A stretch of DNA of 33,411 nt, taken from the NCBI GenBank assembly GCA_035290085.1, contig DATDVK010000110.1, forward strand, positions 1 through 33,411, written 5' to 3'. The notes under the pieces are model-generated. The model ran no database searches and was not told the origin of the DNA. It worked only from the letters and a program-made list of their open reading frames with translations. Positions 2,531 to 31,387 of this stretch are shown in pieces. Each line of letters opens with the position of its first letter. Position 1 is the stretch's first letter. This DNA is from Candidatus Peribacteraceae bacterium. Lineage in GTDB: Bacteria; Patescibacteriota; Gracilibacteria; Peribacterales; Peribacteraceae. A program made the translations under genes and the position numbers.

Positions 2531-3131
2531 AAGTGCCAGGGGGAGAAGCTGACATCGCTGTACCCATCGGTACAACCGCACCGACTGCGAAGTTGGGTCA
2601 TTGGTGCGTGTGCAGTCCGCAGAGCGGACAGCGCAGCGAGGAAGAAGCCTCCTCCCTCACCTTGGCGCGATTGGCTCAGAAAGAACCGTGCGAAGTATGC
2701 AAAGCGTTACCCGTTCGACAAAGCGTGGCTGCTCTGCGGCCGCGTCATCAGAAAGTCATTCCTTCAGGGGCGGGCTCAGGGCGAAGCGCGGGGGCTCTGC
2801 CCCCGCGTGCTTCACGGTTGCCGACAATCATTTTCAGGTTGTTTTGATGGAGCCGGGGTGGGAAAACTGCTCCATGTCCTAGGCCATGTTCCGGGGGCTT
2901 TTTGAGATGCTCCCCGATGCATGCCGCAGACTGCGACATGAGAAGCCCGATTGCTTCTCGAGAATATGCCGCACAAACTGCGACTTGCAGTGAGACCAGG
3001 AATGGCCTCCTCCTCCCACCTCGGCGTTGTTCTCTTACACGAAAAGAACGTGGGAGAAATTTATTCCTCTACTATGATTATGCAATAATTTTCCAAAGAT
3101 TTTCTCCAGTGGTTATTTCTGCCTGGAAGCG

Positions 3132-3212
3132 CTAGACACGGCGTCGTTTGTCGATGCCGCAACGTATGTACAAAGTATGTAAAATTTTGACTGCAAACGG
3201 CGCTGTGTCTAG
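3132..3212 (+). mobile_element. MITE-like palindromic element, copy 1 (19-bp terminal inverted repeats, 43-bp core) carrying the trpS promoter
   Basis: Left arm ctagacacggcgtcgtttg (3132-3150) and right arm caaacggcgctgtgtctag (3194-3212), 17/19 complementary. The first 22 nt match the copy at 28568-28705 in inverted orientation. No transposase is present. Confidence 0.5.
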
Positions 3213-3215
3213 CAT
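3187..3215 (+). promoter_or_regulatory. trpS promoter, TTGACT - 17 nt - TAGCAT, 6 nt before the ATG (leaderless-type)
   Basis: -35 TTGACT at 3187-3192, an exact 17-nt spacer, and -10 TAGCAT at 3210-3215. The TAG of the -10 box is the last 3 nt of the inverted repeat. The ATG is at 3222. Confidence 0.55.
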
Positions 3216-3221
3216 ACGTTC

Positions 3222-4178
3222 ATGCGCGTGCTCTCCGCCATGCAGCCCTCCGGGCAGCTGCACTTGGGAAACTACTTCGGTTCCATGAAGCCGAACCTCG
3301 ATTTCCTCGCGCAGTCGGAGGACAGCTACTTCTTCATTGCCGATCTCCACGCCCTCACCTCGGTGCAGGATCCCGCACTTCTCCGGCAGTACAGGGAAGA
3401 TGCCATTCTGGGCTATCTTGCGGCGGGATTTGATCCCAAGAAGGCGGTGATCTTCTACCAGTCCGAGGTGCCGGAACACACGGAGCTTCTGTGGATTCTC
3501 TCCACGGTGTCCCCCGTGGGTTTGCTGGAGCGTGCGGTGAGTTATAAGGAGAAAGTGGAGAAGGGTATTTCCGCTTCCGTCGGCTTGTTTGCGTATCCTG
3601 TGCTGCAGGCGGCGGACATCCTGCTGTATGGTGCGGACAAGGTCCCCGTCGGGAAAGATCAGAAACAGCATGTGGAGATGGCGAGGGATATCGCCATCAA
3701 GTTCAACAACCAGTTTGGGGAGGTTCTCACGGTGCCGGAGCCGGTGATTGGTGAGGAAGTTGCGGTGGTCCCCGGTATAGACGGGCAGAAGATGAGCAAG
3801 AGCTACGGCAATACCATTCCGCTCTTCGGGGATGAGAAGGAAGTGAAGAAGGCGATTATGGGGATCGTGACCGATTCCAAGGAAAAAGATGATCCCAAGG
3901 ATCCTGAGACCTGCATCATCTATCAGATTCACCGTCTCATGCTGGGGAAGAAGGAGGCTCTTGCTTTGGCAAAGGAGTACCGCAGCGGGCTCCCGTACGG
4001 GGAAGCCAAGAAGAAGCTCTTCCAGTCGTACATGGAGTTCTTTGGGCCTATGCGTCAGCGCAGGGAGGTAATTTCTCTGAAAGAGGCACGGCATGTGCTG
4101 GATGAAGGGGCCAAAAAAGCCCGCTTTGCAGCCCAGAAGACGATGGAGGAGGTGCGCAGGGCCATTGGATTGAGGTAG
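3222..4178 (+). CDS. trpS: Tryptophanyl-tRNA synthetase
   Basis: 318 aa. HIGH-region PSGQLHLGNY and KMSKS (GQKMSKS), with the length and order typical of bacterial TrpRS. Confidence 0.93.
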   Translation: MRVLSAMQPSGQLHLGNYFGSMKPNLDFLAQSEDSYFFIADLHALTSVQDPALLRQYREDAILGYLAAGFDPKKAVIFYQSEVPEHTELLWILSTVSPVGLLERAVSYKEKVEKGISASVGLFAYPVLQAADILLYGADKVPVGKDQKQHVEMARDIAIKFNNQFGEVLTVPEPVIGEEVAVVPGIDGQKMSKSYGNTIPLFGDEKEVKKAIMGIVTDSKEKDDPKDPETCIIYQIHRLMLGKKEALALAKEYRSGLPYGEAKKKLFQSYMEFFGPMRQRREVISLKEARHVLDEGAKKARFAAQKTMEEVRRAIGLR

Positions 4179-4966: not shown

Positions 4967-5554
4967 ATGAGCACTCCGTTCGTGCTTGCATCGGCGAGTC
5001 CGCAGCGCAAAATGCTTCTTCAGGGTCTTGGTGTGGATTGCATCGTTTGTGCGAGTGAGAAGGCCGAGTCGGTGTGCATGGAGGCAGATCCGGTGGAGCG
5101 TGCAAAAATACTCGCACGCCTGAAGGCGGATGATGTCGCCAGGCAGTACCCTGATGCTTGGGTCCTCGGAGGCGATACGCTGGTTGTTTCTTCTCGGGGA
5201 GAGCTCCTTGAGAAGCCGCTCGACGCGGATGACGCCCGGCGCATGCTCCGCTTCCACAGCGGTTCGGCTTCCACTGTGCACTCAACACTGTGCCTCAGGA
5301 GTCCTGCCGGAAAGTTTTTCGAGGGACTCTCGACGTCGAACGTGTATTTCCGGGAGCTTTCGGATGCAGATATTGAATGGTGGATAGCCACAGGACTGTG
5401 GAGGGACCGTTCGGGTGCCTTCCAGATCGATGGCCATGGCCAGCTCCTCATCTCGCGCCTCGAAGGAGACTGGTCGGGTGTTGTGGGGTTGCCGGTGTTC
5501 TTGTTCGGAGAGCTCTGCAGGCAGGCAGGTCTTGATTTGTTTCCAAAGAGATGA
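4967..5554 (+). CDS. maf: Maf-like nucleoside triphosphate pyrophosphatase
   Basis: Motifs LASASPQRK and GGDTLVV, with Maf-family length. The ATG at 4967 is preferred over the track TTG at 4946 because TTGGTAGTACTAT (4946-4958) looks like the promoter. A leaderless mRNA is likely. Confidence 0.85.
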   Translation: MSTPFVLASASPQRKMLLQGLGVDCIVCASEKAESVCMEADPVERAKILARLKADDVARQYPDAWVLGGDTLVVSSRGELLEKPLDADDARRMLRFHSGSASTVHSTLCLRSPAGKFFEGLSTSNVYFRELSDADIEWWIATGLWRDRSGAFQIDGHGQLLISRLEGDWSGVVGLPVFLFGELCRQAGLDLFPKR

Positions 5555-18317: not shown

Positions 18318-18812
18318 CTAAGAAAGCAGCTTCAGCATCAGATGCATGCGATCGATGTATCCTGCTCTGGCATAGAATTCGTGCGCGGAGATGTTCGGGG
18401 CGAAACAATCGACAAACGCGCAGGTGCACCCCTGTGTGCGGAAATATTCTTCCATTGCCTGCATCAGGCGCGTGCCCAAGCCGGATTTGCGGTGTTCCGA
18501 GGTCACGATCAGTTCGAGGATGGAGCCACTCTTCGACGGGTATGATTCCAGTGAGTCGATTTCGTTCTGTTCGGAGATAATGCCGACGATACATCCTGCA
18601 ATGCGGTCATCCTCCTCTGCGACGAAGATATTCCCGGAGCACTTTTCCACCCGCTTAAGCGTGCAGTCGATGTATGCGTCACCGTTGAATGCCGGAAGAT
18701 CCCGCGTCCGTTTGAGCGTGTCAAGATCGGAGACGTACTTCTGTAGCTCTTTGATGCATGACTTGATGCTTTCTCTGTCCGATGGCCGGTACTCGCGGAT
18801 GACCGCTTCCAT
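18318..18812 (-). CDS. GNAT family N-acetyltransferase
   Basis: 164 aa. RKSGLGTRLM acetyl-CoA motif A, with GNAT length. TATCAT lies 6 nt before the ATG. Confidence 0.85.
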   Translation of the reverse strand: MEAVIREYRPSDRESIKSCIKELQKYVSDLDTLKRTRDLPAFNGDAYIDCTLKRVEKCSGNIFVAEEDDRIAGCIVGIISEQNEIDSLESYPSKSGSILELIVTSEHRKSGLGTRLMQAMEEYFRTQGCTCAFVDCFAPNISAHEFYARAGYIDRMHLMLKLLS

Positions 18813-18852
18813 ACCACAATGATAGCAGGAATATCTGTTGGATTTCTGTTAC

Positions 18853-18997
18853 CTGATACCACTTCGCGTTTAAAACCGCACAAATCATTTTGATGTATCA
18901 ACTCGCTGTTCTAGGCTTGAGTAAACGCTACGTGGCACGAGAGGAGAGAGTAATTTGTTCTCTGGTGAGTGTCTTTTTTGTTGCAACTTGGTATGAG
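18853..18997. repeat. 145-nt intergenic repeat, copy A
   Basis: It shares ataccacttcgcgttta, aaacgctacgNggNacNagaggagagag and ttgcaacttggNat blocks, in the same order and spacing, with copies at 28731-28876 and 31090-31233. The centre has diverged. Confidence 0.8.
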
Positions 18998-19029
18998 AAG
19001 GAAACACTCGTGCTCCGATTTCTCAGTGA

Positions 19030-23671: not shown

Positions 23672-23781
23672 CTGGGTTTTGAGTACTGGAATACTAGAAT
23701 ACTTGAGTACCTGAATACTTGATCACTTGAAATATCCGAGTATTCCAGTGCTCAAGTACTCAAGGGAAAAAACCCAAATAC
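23672..23781. repeat. Array of 8-nt GA(A/G)TACTT units that switches to the reverse-complement unit AGTACTCA, forming a ~100-nt imperfect palindrome
   Basis: Read directly: gagtactg gaatacta gaatactt gagtacct gaatactt gatcactt ... agtgctca agtactca ... aatactca. Inner arms 23679-23695 and 23739-23755 are complementary with 1 mismatch. Confidence 0.75.
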
Positions 23782-23784
23782 TCA

Positions 23785-24699
23785 ATGCTGCATATCCCAT
23801 ATTTCCTCTATACTGCAGCTCCTGTGCAAGGCAGGCAGAACATTCTCGGCCAAGACTTCGCGAAGATGCTGAGAGGCGGGGTCATTATGGATGTTGTGAG
23901 CGCGGAGCAGGCATGCATTGCGCAGGCTGCTGGAGCGTGTGCTGTCATGGCTCTCGAACGCATACCGGCGGATATCCGCACGCAGGGCGGGGTGGCACGC
24001 ATGAGCGATCCGCAGCTCATCCGCGAGATACAGGAAGCAGTCTCTATTCCCGTCATGGCGAAGGTGCGCATAGGGCATACGGCGGAAGCGCGCATCCTCG
24101 AGGCTCTTGAGATCGATTTCATCGACGAGAGCGAGGTGCTCACGCCGGCAGATCCTTTCGCACACATCGACAAAACACAGTTTCAGGTGCCGTTCGTCTG
24201 TGGCGCAACCAATCTCGGCGAAGGTCTGCGCAGAGTGGAGGAGGGGGCATCGATGATCCGCACGAAAGGCGAGGCCGGCACAGGAAATGTCATTGAGGCG
24301 GTGCGTCACATGAAAATTATCAGGAGTGGAATCGCATCGTTGAGTGAGATGAGAGAGGAGGAGCTTGCCACGTTCGCTTCCAGGGAGCGGATATCTCTTG
24401 GTCTTGTGCGGAGTGTGCGGGATGCAGGGCGTCTTCCCGTTGTCACGTTCGTTGCGGGAGGAGTGGCCACTCCTGCCGATGCGGCACTACTCATGCAGCT
24501 GGGTGCCGAGGGCGTGTTCGTGGGGTCCGGCATCTTCAAAGCAAAAAATCCGCGGAGAATGGCCGAGAGCATCGTGCAGGCAACCATCCACTTCAGCGAC
24601 CCGAAGAAGCTTCTCGAGGTATCCACAGGTCTCGGAGATGCGATGCCCGGAGAGGAGATAGGGGCAGTTTCTGTCCGTATGCAGGACCGCGGCTGGTAA
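23785..24699 (+). CDS. pdxS: Pyridoxal 5'-phosphate synthase lyase subunit
   Basis: Motifs [25 protein letters not shown] and a C-terminal RGW. An alternative leaderless GTG start at 23824 lies 10 nt after TATACT (23808-23813) and gives an N-terminal length like known PdxS. Confidence 0.93.
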
Positions 24700-25292: not shown

Positions 25293-25913
25293 GTGTCGGC
25301 GTTCCTCACCATTGCTGTCATCCATTTTCTGGCTGTTGTGAGCCCTGGTCCGGATTTTGCCATCGTGACCCGGAATAGCCTGAGTTACTCACGGAGGGAC
25401 GGTGTTGCCACCGCGGCGGGGTGCGGACTGGGTATCCTTGTTCACGTTTCCTATTCGCTCCTCGGGATCGGACTCCTGATCTCGCGGTCCATTTTGCTTT
25501 TCACCATTATCAAGTACATTGGTGCTGCCTACCTTATCTACATCGGGTGGAAAGCGCTGGCTTCGAAGCCAGAGAAGGTTTCTGCTCTGTGTGCCCAGAA
25601 GCTGCGACCGATCACTCTGAGGCAAGCGTTTTGCAATGGTTTCTTCACGAATGTTCTCAACCCGAAAGCGACACTGTTCATGCTGGCACTTTTTACGCAG
25701 GTGATCGAGCCTTCTACTCCCGTAGCTGTCCAGGCTTTCTACGGGATCTACATGGGTGTTGCTACATTCGTGTGGTTTTCATTCATTGCTTCTGTTTTTT
25801 CTCTCCGTGCCATCAGGCAGTGCCTCGGGGACATCCAGTCGGGCATCGAACGTTCCATGGGTGCGGTGTTGATTGCCCTGGGTCTGAAAGTGGCACTTTC
25901 GGCACAGGAGTAG
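25293..25913 (+). CDS. LysE/RhtB family amino-acid exporter
   Basis: 206 aa with about 6 hydrophobic helices and an N-terminal VSPGPDF motif. The GTG start lies 7 nt after GGTATACT (25278-25285). Confidence 0.82.
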   Translation: MSAFLTIAVIHFLAVVSPGPDFAIVTRNSLSYSRRDGVATAAGCGLGILVHVSYSLLGIGLLISRSILLFTIIKYIGAAYLIYIGWKALASKPEKVSALCAQKLRPITLRQAFCNGFFTNVLNPKATLFMLALFTQVIEPSTPVAVQAFYGIYMGVATFVWFSFIASVFSLRAIRQCLGDIQSGIERSMGAVLIALGLKVALSAQE

Positions 25914-26694: not shown

Positions 26695-28557
26695 TCAAAG
26701 GACTGTCCCGGGAGAATCACCTCTGCCAGACACTGATTCCTGTACTGGCAGAAGGACGATTTTCCCGTCGGGATCCCCCTGTCCTGCGGGGAGATACTTC
26801 TTCCCTTCATCCATGAAGAGTAGTGCACAGAGGTGTTCCTGCTTTGCAAGCGGCAATTGTTTCTCTGTCATGCTCACGAACCGGATATCTGTGCCCATCT
26901 GTTTTGCTCTCACAAAAAGTGGATAGTGATAGTACGAGAGCACACCGACGTTGTGGCAATCCATTCGCATCAGTTCGTCGATTGCATGTTCGTACGCGGT
27001 TTGCTTCTGGGGGCCGAGATCGTAGAAATACTGCGGCCACCTGTCGGCTATAAGAATGGAAGGAGCTCCCTTCCCCATCAGGAGCGTATTGGGAACAATG
27101 GGATTTAAGTCGCTGAAAAGCAGGGCGGGGATCGCTGCAACGTACAGAAATACCGCAATGAGTCGCAGCCATTTTCTTGAGGTAGCCGTAGCGAATGCTA
27201 TGCCGACTACAGGAGCAGCCAGTATGAGGAAGGGCATATGGAGTCTTGTCCCGTAAGGATTCCAACTGAGGAATGACCAGGTGATCACAAGACCGCCGAG
27301 GATGGCACCTAGGTACCAGTAATGCTGCTTTTTCTTGGGGAGAGAGAGCAGTGGCACACTCACAACACTTAGAATAATGATAAGGAAATGGAATGGGTTT
27401 CCGGCAAATACTTCATGCGTTTGTGATTTTGGGATATTGAATTCTTGGGATTCGGTGTTTGTACGGTCGATTTCTACGTGCATCACTGCATGTATGTTCT
27501 GGATACCTCGTTCGACAAATGGATTACCGACCATAAGTAATCCTGTTTCGAGGGAGGCATTCTTCAAAATATTCGAAGCGGCAATCGCCGGAGAAAATTC
27601 AGTGTTGATGTTTGTTGCCATATCTTTTCTTGGAACGAGGAAATGCCCAATACTTTCGATGTTTCGGAGGTACTGTGTGGCATTCAGGCTAAGAGCGATG
27701 CTGCCGACTATCAGTGCATGAGAAAGCAGGCGGGTTGGTTGCTTGCGGAGCGAAAGGATGTACCAGAGCACGAATGCGGGGGCGAAAAAATAAGCATTCA
27801 GTTTTGTGAGTAAGCTGAGTCCGAGCACTACTCCTATACGAAGAGCGTTTGCCGGGGATTGGCTGCATCTGTCCCTGAGGATGAGATATGCCAGCATGAG
27901 CAGCCAGAAGGTCACTGCGTGTGTCGCCGTTGCGTTCGTGGACTGCAGTATTCCTATGGGGAGTGTTGCAGCGAAAACCAGTGCAAAGCGTACTGTTCGC
28001 CGCTCCGCGCCGAGCTCTCTGGCGATGAGTGTCACCAGGAAGAGCGAGCCGGCGAATGCGAGCCACTGGGGCATGTGGGCCAGCAGGTCTGAGTCTGTGA
28101 GGAGATAGAGCTGTGCAATGAGGTACTCCGTCAGTGGTGGCATGTACAGCTGCCGCAAATCGAGCGCAGGGTAGTGCACAACGGATTGGTGCTGCACCCA
28201 GTACGCCACTCTTGTCATGTGGTAGCTGATGGAGTCGTGATTGTTCGGAGGTGTGGAGATCGCAATAGCGAAGGTGACGAGGAGGATTGTCCCGATGAGG
28301 ATGACGGTGATCGTCTCTCCTCTGAGTATGTTTCTGGTGTACGAGAGGAATGATCTGCGCTGTTCCCAGAGTTTCTTTCCAAAGAGCAGCCACCCAACGA
28401 TGCCCACGATGCTCCACAGGAACACCACCCATAGTGCGTTCAGCGCATGGAAAAAAGAGAGAAGTTCTGTGATGCCTACAATGGCCACTCCAAAGAAAAG
28501 TGTGATGTCAACGAGGAGGGGCACTTCGAACAAGTGTTCTTTCCCATCTGTTCGCAT
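26695..28557 (-). CDS. Polytopic membrane protein, GT-C fold glycosyltransferase-like (ArnT/PMT, GT39/GT83-like)
   Basis: About 620 aa with many hydrophobic helices. The first-loop motif PPNNHDSISYHMTRVAYW resembles the family. The ATG at 28557 is preferred because the first 12 codons of the track ORF (to 28593) lie in the MITE-like element and its -35/-10 boxes. Confidence 0.55.
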   Translation of the reverse strand: MRTDGKEHLFEVPLLVDITLFFGVAIVGITELLSFFHALNALWVVFLWSIVGIVGWLLFGKKLWEQRRSFLSYTRNILRGETITVILIGTILLVTFAIAISTPPNNHDSISYHMTRVAYWVQHQSVVHYPALDLRQLYMPPLTEYLIAQLYLLTDSDLLAHMPQWLAFAGSLFLVTLIARELGAERRTVRFALVFAATLPIGILQSTNATATHAVTFWLLMLAYLILRDRCSQSPANALRIGVVLGLSLLTKLNAYFFAPAFVLWYILSLRKQPTRLLSHALIVGSIALSLNATQYLRNIESIGHFLVPRKDMATNINTEFSPAIAASNILKNASLETGLLMVGNPFVERGIQNIHAVMHVEIDRTNTESQEFNIPKSQTHEVFAGNPFHFLIIILSVVSVPLLSLPKKKQHYWYLGAILGGLVITWSFLSWNPYGTRLHMPFLILAAPVVGIAFATATSRKWLRLIAVFLYVAAIPALLFSDLNPIVPNTLLMGKGAPSILIADRWPQYFYDLGPQKQTAYEHAIDELMRMDCHNVGVLSYYHYPLFVRAKQMGTDIRFVSMTEKQLPLAKQEHLCALLFMDEGKKYLPAGQGDPDGKIVLLPVQESVSGRGDSPGTVL

Positions 28558-28564
28558 AGCCAGT

Positions 28565-28593
28565 ATTCTAGACACGGCGTCGTTCCCAATCAA
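28565..28593 (-). promoter_or_regulatory. Promoter TTGATT - 17 nt - TAGAAT, 7 nt before the ATG at 28557 (leaderless-type)
   Basis: On the minus strand, -35 TTGATT lies at 28593-28588 and -10 TAGAAT at 28570-28565. The TAG is the terminal triplet of the inverted repeat, the same geometry as at trpS. Confidence 0.5.
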
Positions 28594-28705
28594 ACTTTCA
28601 CCCGACTCCGCAGGAGGCCACGGCCGTAAGGCCGTGGAGCTTCACTGGCTTTGCACAGCCATTATCGTGGCAATGATGTTCACCGACAAACGACGCCGTG
28701 TCTAG
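28568..28705 (-). mobile_element. MITE-like palindromic element, copy 2 (perfect 17-bp terminal inverted repeats, ~104-bp core with a GC hairpin)
   Basis: ctagacacggcgtcgtt (28568-28584) pairs with aacgacgccgtgtctag (28689-28705). The reverse complement of the right end, ctagacacggcgtcgtttgtcg, matches the copy 1 left end over 22 nt. The internal hairpin is ccacggcc-gtaa-ggccgtgg (28618-28637). Confidence 0.55.
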
Positions 28706-28730
28706 TTGGAGGTGAACGGCGATGCCACTT

Positions 28731-28876
28731 CTCATACCACTTCGCGTTTATAAACGATGCCAGTGCACTGCAGTTTTGCAGAAGCAATTCTTGGCTTGTG
28801 CAAACGCTACGCGGTACGAGGAGAGGAAGTCTCCGTTCTCGAGATTAGTATCTTTATTATTGCTGCCAAGTGTCAG
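28731..28876. repeat. 145-nt intergenic repeat, copy B
   Basis: By hand alignment it is roughly 75-80% identical to copy C over its whole length. The right end overlaps the MFS stop codon. Confidence 0.8.
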
Positions 28877-30027
28877 AAAAAGATGATCGGCAGTGCACTC
28901 ACGCTTCCGATGAAGAAGGAAGTCCGGATGCCATTGGTGAGGAACATCAGTCCAAGGAAGAGCATCGTACGTCCGAAGAGGAGAGAAAACTCTTTGAACG
29001 CAAAGAATTCGAGCGGCGATGCACTCTTTTTTGCCGATTCGTTGACAATACACTCAAATGGAACGTCCACGAGTATCTTCACCGTTGCGGCAATAACGGC
29101 TAGGTAGACGAGGAGTGTGGAATGGAGGGCAATGCCGAGGACGGCGAGCATGACTGCTGTCGCGACGACACCGATTCTGAGGACAGTACGTCTCCCGAGC
29201 CTGTCCACGCTGTGGCCGATTTTCATGGCGCAGAATACATTGCAGAGAGTGATGACAGACATAGCGGTACCCAGGAAGACAATGTCGCTTCTGCCGAGGA
29301 ACAGGGCAATCGGAAGAACAGCGAAGAATATGAATCCTTTTATGCCGTAGAGATTGAGCATGAGGAACATTTTCCGGTGGGTGCGGAAGTAGTGCCGGAA
29401 GTTTGTGAGCCGGAAGTGCGGGTGGTCCATGTTGCCCTCCACGAATGCGATGGGCACGACGGAGAATATGAGTACGAGGGAGACAATGGTGTAGAGCATG
29501 GCATAGCCAAACGTCATGACCACCCATCCTCCGGCAAGTGGGCCAAAGATTGTTCCCAGTGTGGGGAGTGCGATAAATTTGCTGGTTTGTGCTCCTTCGT
29601 GCCTGCGGGACATTACCTGTGAGAACAAGGAACTGATGGAGAGGGTGTAGAGACAGGAAGAGGTTCCGAGCAGCAGGGCAGGGAAGAGGTAGTACGATTG
29701 CAGCGAAGTGTTGGAGTTCATGGCACCGAGGTAGACGAGTGCCCCTACGAGAATGGGTGTGCGCAGGAGCACAACTTCCTTGATACCAACACGGCTGATG
29801 ATCATGCCGGAGAGAGGCGCCAGCAATCCAAAACACACCCATTCGACGAGGAGAAAGAGAAATGTCTGCCGGAGGGAAAATCCTAATTGCAGCAGCTGTA
29901 TGGGCACGAAGACGGAGATCATGGAAATAGCGATGGATTTCACTACTAAGTGCACATAGATGCCCCGGAGCTCCTCCTTCATCTGGCAGATTTTACTGAT
30001 GTGGTGCTGGTGTTGTTTGGTGTACAT
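28873..30027 (-). CDS. MFS transporter
   Basis: 384 aa with about 12 hydrophobic helices and the motif-A-like VDRLGRR. TGGTAAAAT (30046-30038, minus strand) lies 10 nt upstream of the ATG. Confidence 0.75.
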   Translation of the reverse strand: MYTKQHQHHISKICQMKEELRGIYVHLVVKSIAISMISVFVPIQLLQLGFSLRQTFLFLLVEWVCFGLLAPLSGMIISRVGIKEVVLLRTPILVGALVYLGAMNSNTSLQSYYLFPALLLGTSSCLYTLSISSLFSQVMSRRHEGAQTSKFIALPTLGTIFGPLAGGWVVMTFGYAMLYTIVSLVLIFSVVPIAFVEGNMDHPHFRLTNFRHYFRTHRKMFLMLNLYGIKGFIFFAVLPIALFLGRSDIVFLGTAMSVITLCNVFCAMKIGHSVDRLGRRTVLRIGVVATAVMLAVLGIALHSTLLVYLAVIAATVKILVDVPFECIVNESAKKSASPLEFFAFKEFSLLFGRTMLFLGLMFLTNGIRTSFFIGSVSALPIIFF

Positions 30028-31066: not shown

Positions 31067-31089
31067 AGAATAGTGGAGGAGTTGCTTCT

Positions 31090-31233
31090 ATCATACCACT
31101 TCGCGTTTAAACGATACCAATGCACCGCAGTTTGGCAGAAGCAATTGCTGACTTGTACAAACGCTACGCGGTACAAGAGGAGAGAGTTTCCATTTTCAGG
31201 AACAGTATCCTTGTAATTGCAACTTGGCATCAT
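31090..31233. repeat. 145-nt intergenic repeat, copy C (between divergent genes)
   Basis: Same blocks as copies A and B. The left end reads TGGTATGAT on the minus strand, 23 nt upstream of the dehydrogenase ATG. Confidence 0.8.
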
Positions 31234-31387
31234 CATGCAATAGCCTTTCTTTGTGAAGGGATTCTTGGTGGAGGAGATCCTTCTGCACTGCCGTATTCAT
31301 GCCTTCTGTATAAATTTGTTATATGCAAGACACTTGAATACTCAGCTTGGCAAACTATGCTGCTACCGTACGTTTCCCGCTCTTCCT

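Follow-up and report, generated by a model that had tools for sequence, protein, structure and literature searches.

What kind of sequence separates a gene from its promoter when the space between them is filled by a palindrome? The question is raised by the gene for a PMT_2-family membrane glycosyltransferase in contig DATDVK010000110.1 (assembly GCA_035290085.1), a stretch of 33,411 nucleotides (nt) that was analyzed over its whole length and is called the window below. The host is an uncultured groundwater Peribacteria bacterium of the candidate phylum Peregrinibacteria, within the candidate phyla radiation (CPR), and the window comes from a population of the Rifle aquifer. An earlier note on this DNA had described the sequence in front of the gene as the second, longer copy of a promoter-bearing palindromic element, inserted into an older 5' untranslated region (UTR). 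We find that this second copy (copy 2) is a new member of an established class, an IS630-like miniature inverted-repeat transposable element, or MITE, that appears to form a hybrid promoter of the Correia type. The explanation that best accounts for the locus as a whole, to which we give a probability of about 0.72, is a MITE confined to Peribacteria that inserted into the -10 box of a leaderless gene, formed a hybrid promoter there and now carries the remnant of another element nested inside it.

Copy 2 is bounded by terminal inverted repeats of 17 nt each, which are 100% complementary and enclose 104 nt, and an inverted-repeat search recovered exactly the arms and core length proposed earlier. 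It stands, as proposed, between a repeat of a different kind (repeat B, about 28727-28879) and the PMT_2 gene, with its -35-bearing end facing the gene on the minus strand. The range first given for it, 28557-28705, does contain the element but extends over the start codon and 11 nt of flank as well; the element proper spans 28568-28705. The ends of the core agree with those of copy 1, which lies in front of trpS: one repeat is followed by TGTCGnTG, and the other is preceded by TTTGAyTG. When up to three mismatches were allowed, the 17-mer occurred four times in the window, at both ends of copy 1 and both ends of copy 2, while 0.09 occurrences were expected in shuffles and none of 100 shuffles reached four. 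A profile search of the window likewise returned copies 1 and 2 as the only matches. The only open reading frames (ORFs) across copy 2 were a spurious 12-codon extension of the gene and a 45-amino-acid antisense ORF. No tRNA was found by a tRNA scan, and Rfam gave nothing in the window at gathering thresholds and nothing at E <= 5 for 28500-28900.

Both copies have a precise empty site in a sister genome, MFYJ01000007.1 (loci L040 for copy 2 and L099 for copy 1). The earlier note had made its claim of mobility depend on such sites in relatives, and they exist at both loci. In the orthologous PMT_2 locus, where the encoded protein is 84% identical, the stop codon TGA of the upstream MFS gene is followed by gaagtagcatcgcagtccccctccag, CTAG, gatgcacct and the ATG, with 39 nt between the genes and with neither the element nor repeat B present. 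The filled site in the window reads ...cacctccaa-CTAG-[ACACGG...CCGTGT]-CTAG-aatactggct-ATG. The intergenic length is 315 nt in the window versus 39 nt in the sister genome, and the difference of 276 nt breaks down into 141 nt for repeat B, 134 nt for the element with its TA and a single further nt. The empty allele showed zero differences across contigs of four independent public runs. For copy 1, the empty site reads ...gcctggaagcg-CTAG-catacgttc-ATG, with the same flanks as in the window. The element was absent from all of about 26 further trpS loci of Peribacteria, so the filled allele is the derived one. Copy 1 was also observed in a third lineage (L096), at 92-95% identity. A search for an empty allele of the copy-2 locus in the window's own population found none in the Logan contigs of four runs, which held other MITE copies only, all without the 44-nt internal module described below. 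That copy 2 is a MITE with a CTAG/TA target is close to certain in our judgment: terminal inverted repeats, small non-coding size, dispersed non-orthologous copies, target duplication and empty sites were all observed.

The choice of target bears on the kind of transposase involved. Since both empty sites hold a single CTAG, insertion took place at the TA of CTAG, and on the simplest reading of the sequences the TA was duplicated, so that the filled site would be written C-TA-[GACACGG...CCGTGTC]-TA-G. IS5-group elements duplicate 4-bp YTAR targets, and an IS5-type transposase with a 4-bp CTAG duplication predicts the same single CTAG in the empty site and CTAG at both filled ends. Two copies (L010 and L029), however, are bounded by TTAG on one side and by CTAG on the opposite side, which fits a 2-bp duplication better than a 4-bp one; the TA model needs no mutation there. 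Duplication of TA by the IS630 family has been demonstrated (PMC2170065), and a preference of IS630 for TA within 5'-CTAG-3' is documented in the work of Tenzen & Ohtsubo (1991) as cited in PMC2170065. Both traits of the IS630/Tc1-mariner group, a 2-bp TA duplication and a preference for CTAG, were found in the present element, and an IS5-type origin appears quite unlikely to us. CTAG is about 10-fold depleted in the window (13 observed versus 126 expected), and 4 of the 13 are MITE ends. TTAA is also about 10-fold depleted (9 observed versus 81 expected). A further inverted repeat of 26 nt, 85% complementary and rich in GTACT/GAATACT, was observed at 23679-23755; it has a CTAG (TACTAGAATACT) in its left arm, is intergenic, lies upstream of a plus-strand gene starting at 23785 and is unrelated to the MITE.

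After de-duplication we counted 23 distinct insertion sites of the element, plus one with a degenerate repeat (L039), or about 24. The canonical element is 94 nt long, with terminal inverted repeats of about 17-20 nt and no ORF; lengths range from 81 to 289 nt with a mode of 94 nt. The terminal inverted repeats are kept in all copies. Element length and about 20 nt at the ends are conserved, and the cores split into subfamilies. In a scan of one genome per species, paired repeats were observed solely in metagenome-assembled genomes of Peribacteria/Peregrinibacteria. At least four genomes were involved, with about 10 copies in JACPMB01, five in MFYJ01 (RIFOXYB1_FULL_54_35) and paired repeats in CAZLYW01 and VMEW01 as well; a metagenome scan yielded further copies. 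Single matches to the 17-mer in other phyla (Lactiplantibacillus, Cupriavidus, Pyrobaculum and others) were unpaired and were discarded as chance, and viral contigs searched with the repeat gave one unpaired chance match. A palindrome that sits upstream of several genes and overlaps promoter elements might instead be a fixed operator for a dimeric regulator. To this we attach almost no credence, in view of the two loci at which sister genomes differ by its precise presence or absence and a duplicated target, the occurrence at non-orthologous loci with conserved ends and length and variable cores, and the other mini-elements nested inside.

Orthologues of the SIMPL (DUF541) gene in two species both have a MITE upstream, at L001 6034-6127 (94 nt) and at L046 4618-4755 (138 nt, the same site as L037). 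These two belong to different subfamilies, lie at different distances from the gene and have unrelated flanks, and they represent either independent insertions or one old insertion that has diverged. No clear correspondence was found in the window for the insertion site at mgtE (L033), and the other JACPMB insertion sites had no orthologues among the loci compared. A literature search for MITEs in CPR bacteria returned nothing.

The empty sites place both insertions within -10-like hexamers. Each hexamer opens with the TAG of the target, and 6 nt separate it from the start codon; trpS has TAGCAT-acgttc-ATG, and the PMT_2 gene has TAGGAT-gcacct-ATG (the latter pattern from the one orthologue compared). 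A TAnnnT hexamer 6-8 nt before the ATG was observed in 26 of 28 Peribacteria trpS orthologues versus 5 of 23 from other phyla, and motifs resembling a Shine-Dalgarno (SD) sequence preceded trpS in 1 of 28 and 11 of 23, respectively. These counts indicate that TAnnnT without an SD is the normal arrangement in Peribacteria and that the corresponding mRNAs are probably leaderless; by standard promoter geometry, a -10 box so close to the start codon would put the transcription start at or beside that codon. Other genes in the window have the same pattern, with TATCAT-6-ATG at 18812, TATACT-7-GTG at 25293 and further cases at 4967 and 13876. We found nothing in the literature on leaderless genes in Peribacteria, and the comparison provides sequence-level evidence that genes in this group are commonly leaderless, with the -10 box 6-8 nt before the ATG. 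One contig labelled Kiritimatiellales (L117, JAIPIN010000021.1) carries a trpS 64% identical to that of the window, with an upstream TAAGCT-6-ATG of the Peribacteria type, and may be Peribacteria sequence that was misbinned; after it, the closest trpS relatives from outside Peribacteria belong to PVC-group bacteria, at 55-58% identity.

The leaderless distance of the -10-like box also indicates that the element split this box and not a 5' UTR. The older leader that the earlier note had proposed is not supported: the empty site lacks repeat B too, has 39 nt from stop to ATG and offers as the target a cTAGGAT 6 nt before the ATG. According to that proposal, a promoter in repeat B (the TGGTATGAG box) drove the gene, whose leader measured about 35 nt before the element arrived. 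If the element is taken out, an extended -10-like TGGTATGAG does stand 39 nt before the ATG, and the related repeats are separated from the ATGs of their genes by 40 nt (A) and 23 nt (C). We nevertheless consider the proposal improbable. The orthologous site has no repeat B, the insertion point is itself a -10-like hexamer at leaderless distance, the gene that follows repeat A is preceded by a TATCAT of its own, at 6 nt from the ATG, and the TGGTAT box falls within the 3' arm of a hairpin conserved among the repeats.

Because repeat B is missing from its orthologous site, it is itself an insertion/deletion difference and cannot count as the ancestral leader of the gene; it is separate from the MITE and forms part of a rearranged intergenic region. 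The A/B/C family to which it belongs (about 150 nt) was observed in the window at 18849-19000, 28727-28879 and 31086-31235, in L040 at 326-508 and in L105 at 3093-3238, always just upstream of a minus-strand gene. Its conserved 3' hairpin, GUACCGC-GUA-GCGUUU...AAACGC-GAA-GUGGUAU, shows some compensatory changes, and it is the 3' arm of this hairpin that holds the TGGTAT box. Repeat C is present at the orthologous MFYJ01 site, whereas repeat B is absent from its own. The L040 copy of repeat C has an extra GC hairpin insert of 33 nt. The A/B/C repeats had no Rfam match, and they may represent a structured RNA or a further mobile element.

Before the promoter can be considered, the start of the PMT_2 gene must be fixed. 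The mechanical ORF start at 28593 lies inside the -35 hexamer TTGATT, as the earlier note had pointed out, and uses its TTG as the codon; the 12-codon extension MIGNDAVSRILA that this start adds consists wholly of element, duplicated TA and flank. The orthologous protein starts with MRTDEKEHLF at the equivalent ATG, and in the orthologue the TAG of CTAG is an in-frame stop three codons upstream of that ATG. Since the orthologue starts at the same ATG with an in-frame stop before it, 28557 is the true start and MIGNDAVSRILA is derived from the element. Conservation of MIGNDAVSRILA among orthologues, which would have made it a real N-terminus, was not found, and public gene calls on three contigs with the exact locus give 620 amino acids. 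We have very little doubt that 28557 is the real start codon, and the gene model is corrected from 28593 accordingly.

With the start so placed, the minus strand reads TTGATT, 17 nt, TAGAAT, ACTGGCT (7 nt) and ATG, the geometry that had been described before, and the reading was reproduced by a consensus scan that found three promoter-like sites in 600 nt versus 0.4 in shuffles. The description of the element as promoter-bearing holds in part. The element supplies the -35 hexamer, but in the -10 hexamer TAGAAT the TA is the duplicated target, the G is the outer base of CTAG and the AAT is pre-existing flank; the orthologous empty site has TAGGAT in the place of TAGAAT. Because the TA is duplicated, the junction again reads TAGnAT. 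Copy 1 has the corresponding arrangement in front of trpS (Table 1). A second promoter-like match that also faces the gene, TTGTCG-17-GATAAT, was observed within copy 2 at 28661-28689 on the minus strand; it is present in the Rifle subfamily and absent from the JACPMB subfamily.

Across the family, TTGAnn is conserved at the -35 position in 17 of 23 copies, and through the variants TTGAyT, TTGACG and TTGAAG the spacing of 17 nt is exact in all subfamilies. A TAGnAT junction was observed at the -35-bearing end of 10 of the 23 sites (binomial 1.3e-7 against a background of 0.054, the AT dinucleotide frequency) and at the other end of one. All ten are among the 17 copies with TTGAnn, while none of the six copies without it has such a junction. 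At seven of the ten sites, a long ORF with Pfam support over its full length starts 4-9 nt after the hexamer; the genes are trpS, map (methionine aminopeptidase), uppP (UppP/BacA), a rhodanese gene, mgtE, an ABC-2 permease gene and the PMT_2 gene. Two of the remaining three sites precede SIMPL and LVIVD genes. In the degenerate L039 copy, a folA-like ORF lies 13 nt downstream.

We propose that a transposase acting in trans inserted the element so that the native -10 box was parted from the sequence upstream of it, and that the duplicated TA rebuilt the hexamer as TAGAAT. The TTGATT of the element, exactly 17 nt from its end, would then combine with the rebuilt -10 box into a complete sigma-70-type promoter, and transcription would start at or next to the A of the ATG at 28557. 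Copies would survive for the most part at sites where the gene downstream stays expressed thanks to this arrangement. An association with the target alone would be symmetrical, so the observed asymmetry argues that insertions survive when the -35 faces the gene. On this evidence, the hybrid promoter is somewhat more probably functional than silent.

Several observations weigh against the proposed explanation, and some of them are shared by a rival in which the MITE is real but its promoter geometry is unused, the native -10 box or an upstream promoter drives the gene and the bias reflects tolerance of CTAG. TTGATT in copy 2 matches the -35 consensus at only 4 of 6 positions, and a -10 hexamer pre-exists at both empty sites. 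Thirteen of the 23 copies have no -10 at the junction, so that members of the family need not carry a promoter. It may be chiefly in -10 boxes that CTAG survives, and its 10-fold depletion means that the association with -10 boxes may partly reflect tolerance of CTAG and not selection. In addition, the comparison with orthologues for copy 2 rests on one sister genome; its TAGGAT overlaps AGGA, which could equally be an SD for co-transcription with the MFS gene, and a promoter may have been lacking from the ancestral copy-2 site. As for the promoter itself, its start site and leaderless translation, each is a prediction drawn from sequence; among the public runs searched, no RNA run contained this sequence. 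Finally, no autonomous parent came to light: about 100 repeat-bearing loci contained no repeat pair 400-3000 nt apart, whole genomes not having been scanned for transposases. We still regard the unused-promoter alternative as unlikely, since a target bias should be symmetrical and TAGnAT is divided 10 to 1 between the ends, since TAGnAT occurs only in copies with TTGAnn (10/17 versus 0/6) and since the 17-nt spacing is exact in every subfamily.

The element might also act mainly as RNA, as an RNase III site, a stabilizer or a terminator-like insulator in read-through from the MFS gene to the PMT_2 gene. The sense RNA folds into a 17-bp terminal stem with inner hairpins (-70.1 kcal/mol, z = -5.9 versus shuffles), the orthologous genes are 39 nt apart and may be co-transcribed, and Correia repeats are known to be cleaved by RNase III (PMC10969869, PMC2649163). 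Such a role would leave the orientation bias and the fixed 17-nt spacing to the junction -10 unexplained, and no T-tract terminator was detected. As the principal function it is a minority reading with a modest chance of being right, and an RNA-level effect can coexist with the promoter model.

A bolder extension of the promoter model is that the family is a "promoter-safe" transposon specialized for the leaderless promoters of Peribacteria. The CTAG/TA target forms the first bases of cTAGnAT, the duplication would rebuild the box, and a -35 is carried at 17 nt. We hold this extension only tentatively and think it doubtful. If it were true, insertion at essential genes (trpS, map, uppP, folA) would leave expression unchanged or raise it. 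The element would then serve as a portable -35 module by which promoters are turned over in a reduced CPR genome, possibly contributing to the 10-fold depletion of CTAG.

The GC hairpin that the earlier note had reported as an extra feature of the core is present, as CCACGGCCGTAAGGCCGTGG with a GTAA loop at 28618-28637, but it does not belong to the original design of the element. Further copies in the same metagenomes are shorter by exactly 44 nt (28602-28645), a module that lies 3 nt upstream of the -35 hexamer and whose boundary has a 5-nt ambiguity because TTCAC stands on both sides. The copies form a length series. It begins with the 94-nt element (L024), followed by a 253-nt form (L011) that equals the 94-nt element with a 159-nt two-hairpin insert after TTCAC. 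In the 138-nt form (copy 2 of the window and L037), the two hairpins are collapsed into one, and in a 289-nt form (L036) a further 36 nt are nested in the hairpin loop. The full two-hairpin form was observed in L011 and L036, while copy 2 kept a single hairpin, which marks the module as a collapsed remnant and not an intact element.

The 20-nt hairpin, CCACGG(G/C)CGTAAG(C/G)CCGTGG, was observed at more than 119 loci in many phyla (L180-L298), including CPR groups, Desulfobacterales, Planctomycetota, Acidobacteriota and Binatia. In several of these loci (among them L293, L183 and L214) it lies 5-25 nt after IS200-like Y1_Tnp genes (PF01797, E 1e-30 to 2e-34), L293 having the hairpin at both ends of the Y1_Tnp element, and some loci are two-hairpin derivatives without a transposase. 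By these sequence likenesses, the 44-nt module is a collapsed miniature element of the IS200/IS605 type nested in the MITE. After its own insertion, the MITE gained a two-hairpin IS200/IS605-type mini-element that later collapsed to the 44-nt module. A TnpB guide RNA or ribozyme was considered for the hairpin and was dropped once Y1 transposase genes were found adjoining. Rfam assigned no family to the hairpin contexts and gave only sub-threshold matches to generic miRNA hairpins, the neighbors of hairpin-only loci were unrelated housekeeping genes, and the Peribacteria loci examined held no IS200-type transposase. In some soil and groundwater runs, 31-mers of the hairpin reached 100-590x depth versus 2-6x on the flanks. 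A variant with a TTAA loop was observed beside 'ggctaaagcc' hairpins in Bacteroidota, and arrays with 'gcccccgcagggggc' hairpins were observed in Planctomycetota and Acidobacteriota. The coordinates of all features are collected in Table 1.

Table 1. Features of the two MITE copies, their nested and neighboring repeats and the PMT_2 gene in the window.
Feature	Position	Strand	Basis or detail
MITE copy 2 including bounding CTAGs, 138 nt	28568..28705	-	repeats and empty site in L040
Element proper under the TA-duplication model, 132 nt	28571-28702		duplicated TAs at 28569-28570 and 28703-28704
Terminal inverted repeat, gene-proximal arm, CTAGACACGGCGTCGTT	28568..28584	n/a	inverted-repeat search
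Terminal inverted repeat, gene-distal arm	28689..28705	n/a	inverted-repeat search
Nested insertion, 44 nt, TTCAC on both sides	28602..28645	n/a	absent from 94-nt copies
-35-like hexamer TTGATT inside the element	28588..28593	-	consensus scan
-10-like hexamer TAGAAT	28565..28570	-	sequence and consensus scan
Start codon ATG, probable leaderless start	28555..28557	-	7 nt after the -10
PMT_2-family membrane glycosyltransferase gene, 620 amino acids	26695..28557	-	ORF, orthologue, public gene calls
Repeat B, about 141 nt extra relative to the orthologous site, directly after the MFS stop codon	28732..28872	-	repeat comparison and empty site
MITE copy 1, 81 nt, in front of trpS	3132..3212	+	empty site in L099 with identical flanks
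Promoter-like site of copy 1	-35 TTGACT 3187-3192, -10 TAGCAT 3210-3215, ATG 3222	+	17-nt spacer; 6 nt from -10 to ATG
Repeat expected to flank any full-length IS630-type parent			GACACGGCGYCGTTT

Taken together, these observations document active or recent transposition in small Peribacteria genomes, and the two loci provide natural pairs of filled and empty alleles that can be used to test the effect on expression of a -10 box split by a MITE. Three layers are nested at the PMT_2 gene, namely the native promoter, the IS630-like MITE and the IS200/IS605-type hairpin element, and this nesting helps to interpret many GC hairpins in groundwater metagenomes. The element is of an ordinary kind, here well documented in a little-studied lineage; what sets it apart is its placement in the -10 boxes of probably leaderless genes in a CPR group, together with the nested IS200/IS605-type remnant. 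A term search of the Peribacteria genome paper (PMC4736985) gave no mention of transposons, mobile elements or promoters.

Insertion sequences (ISs) can make hybrid promoters in which an outward -35 near the element end joins a flank-derived -10 at 17-nt spacing. The Peribacteria element differs from these in that it is non-autonomous, is 94-138 nt long and has a -10 that is partly regenerated by its own target duplication. With IS630/Tc1-mariner elements it shares insertion at TA, a 2-bp TA duplication, the preference for CTAG and terminal inverted repeats, and its assignment to that group is made by the target and duplication signature alone. The nested 44-nt module resembles IS200/IS605 elements in having the same hairpin, CCACGGCCGTAAGGCCGTGG, as is found near Y1_Tnp genes and in its insertion beside a fixed TTCAC, which doubles as the element's own 3' end, with no true duplication; it differs in that a single hairpin is left in copy 2, the 159-nt two-hairpin form being seen in L011 and L036.

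The closest likeness in layout is to the Correia elements (CREE/NEMIS) of Neisseria, which are also small and non-coding, with terminal inverted repeats, a TA target, several length classes and a position mostly just 5' of genes. RNA hairpins can form from the repeats in both cases, and a cognate transposase is not known for either. In the 'Black promoter' of the Correia elements, the -35 and part of the -10 lie in the element and the flank completes the -10 (PMC2649163; reviewed in PMC10969869); TTGATT-17-TA|G|AAT in copy 2 has this layout, as do 10 of the 23 sites in all. By sequence the two elements are unrelated: 28568-28705 contains neither the motifs CCGGTACGG and TCAGGACAA from the ends of the Correia core (PMC2649163) nor their complements, and no IHF site or second 'Snyder' promoter is evident in the Peribacteria element. 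Function has been shown experimentally for Correia elements, whereas the Peribacteria element is known from sequence. All of its paired copies are in Peribacteria, a CPR host, and it targets CTAG where Correia elements target TA only. In further contrast to Correia elements, its two documented insertions lie inside -10 hexamers at leaderless distance, where the predicted product is a leaderless mRNA.

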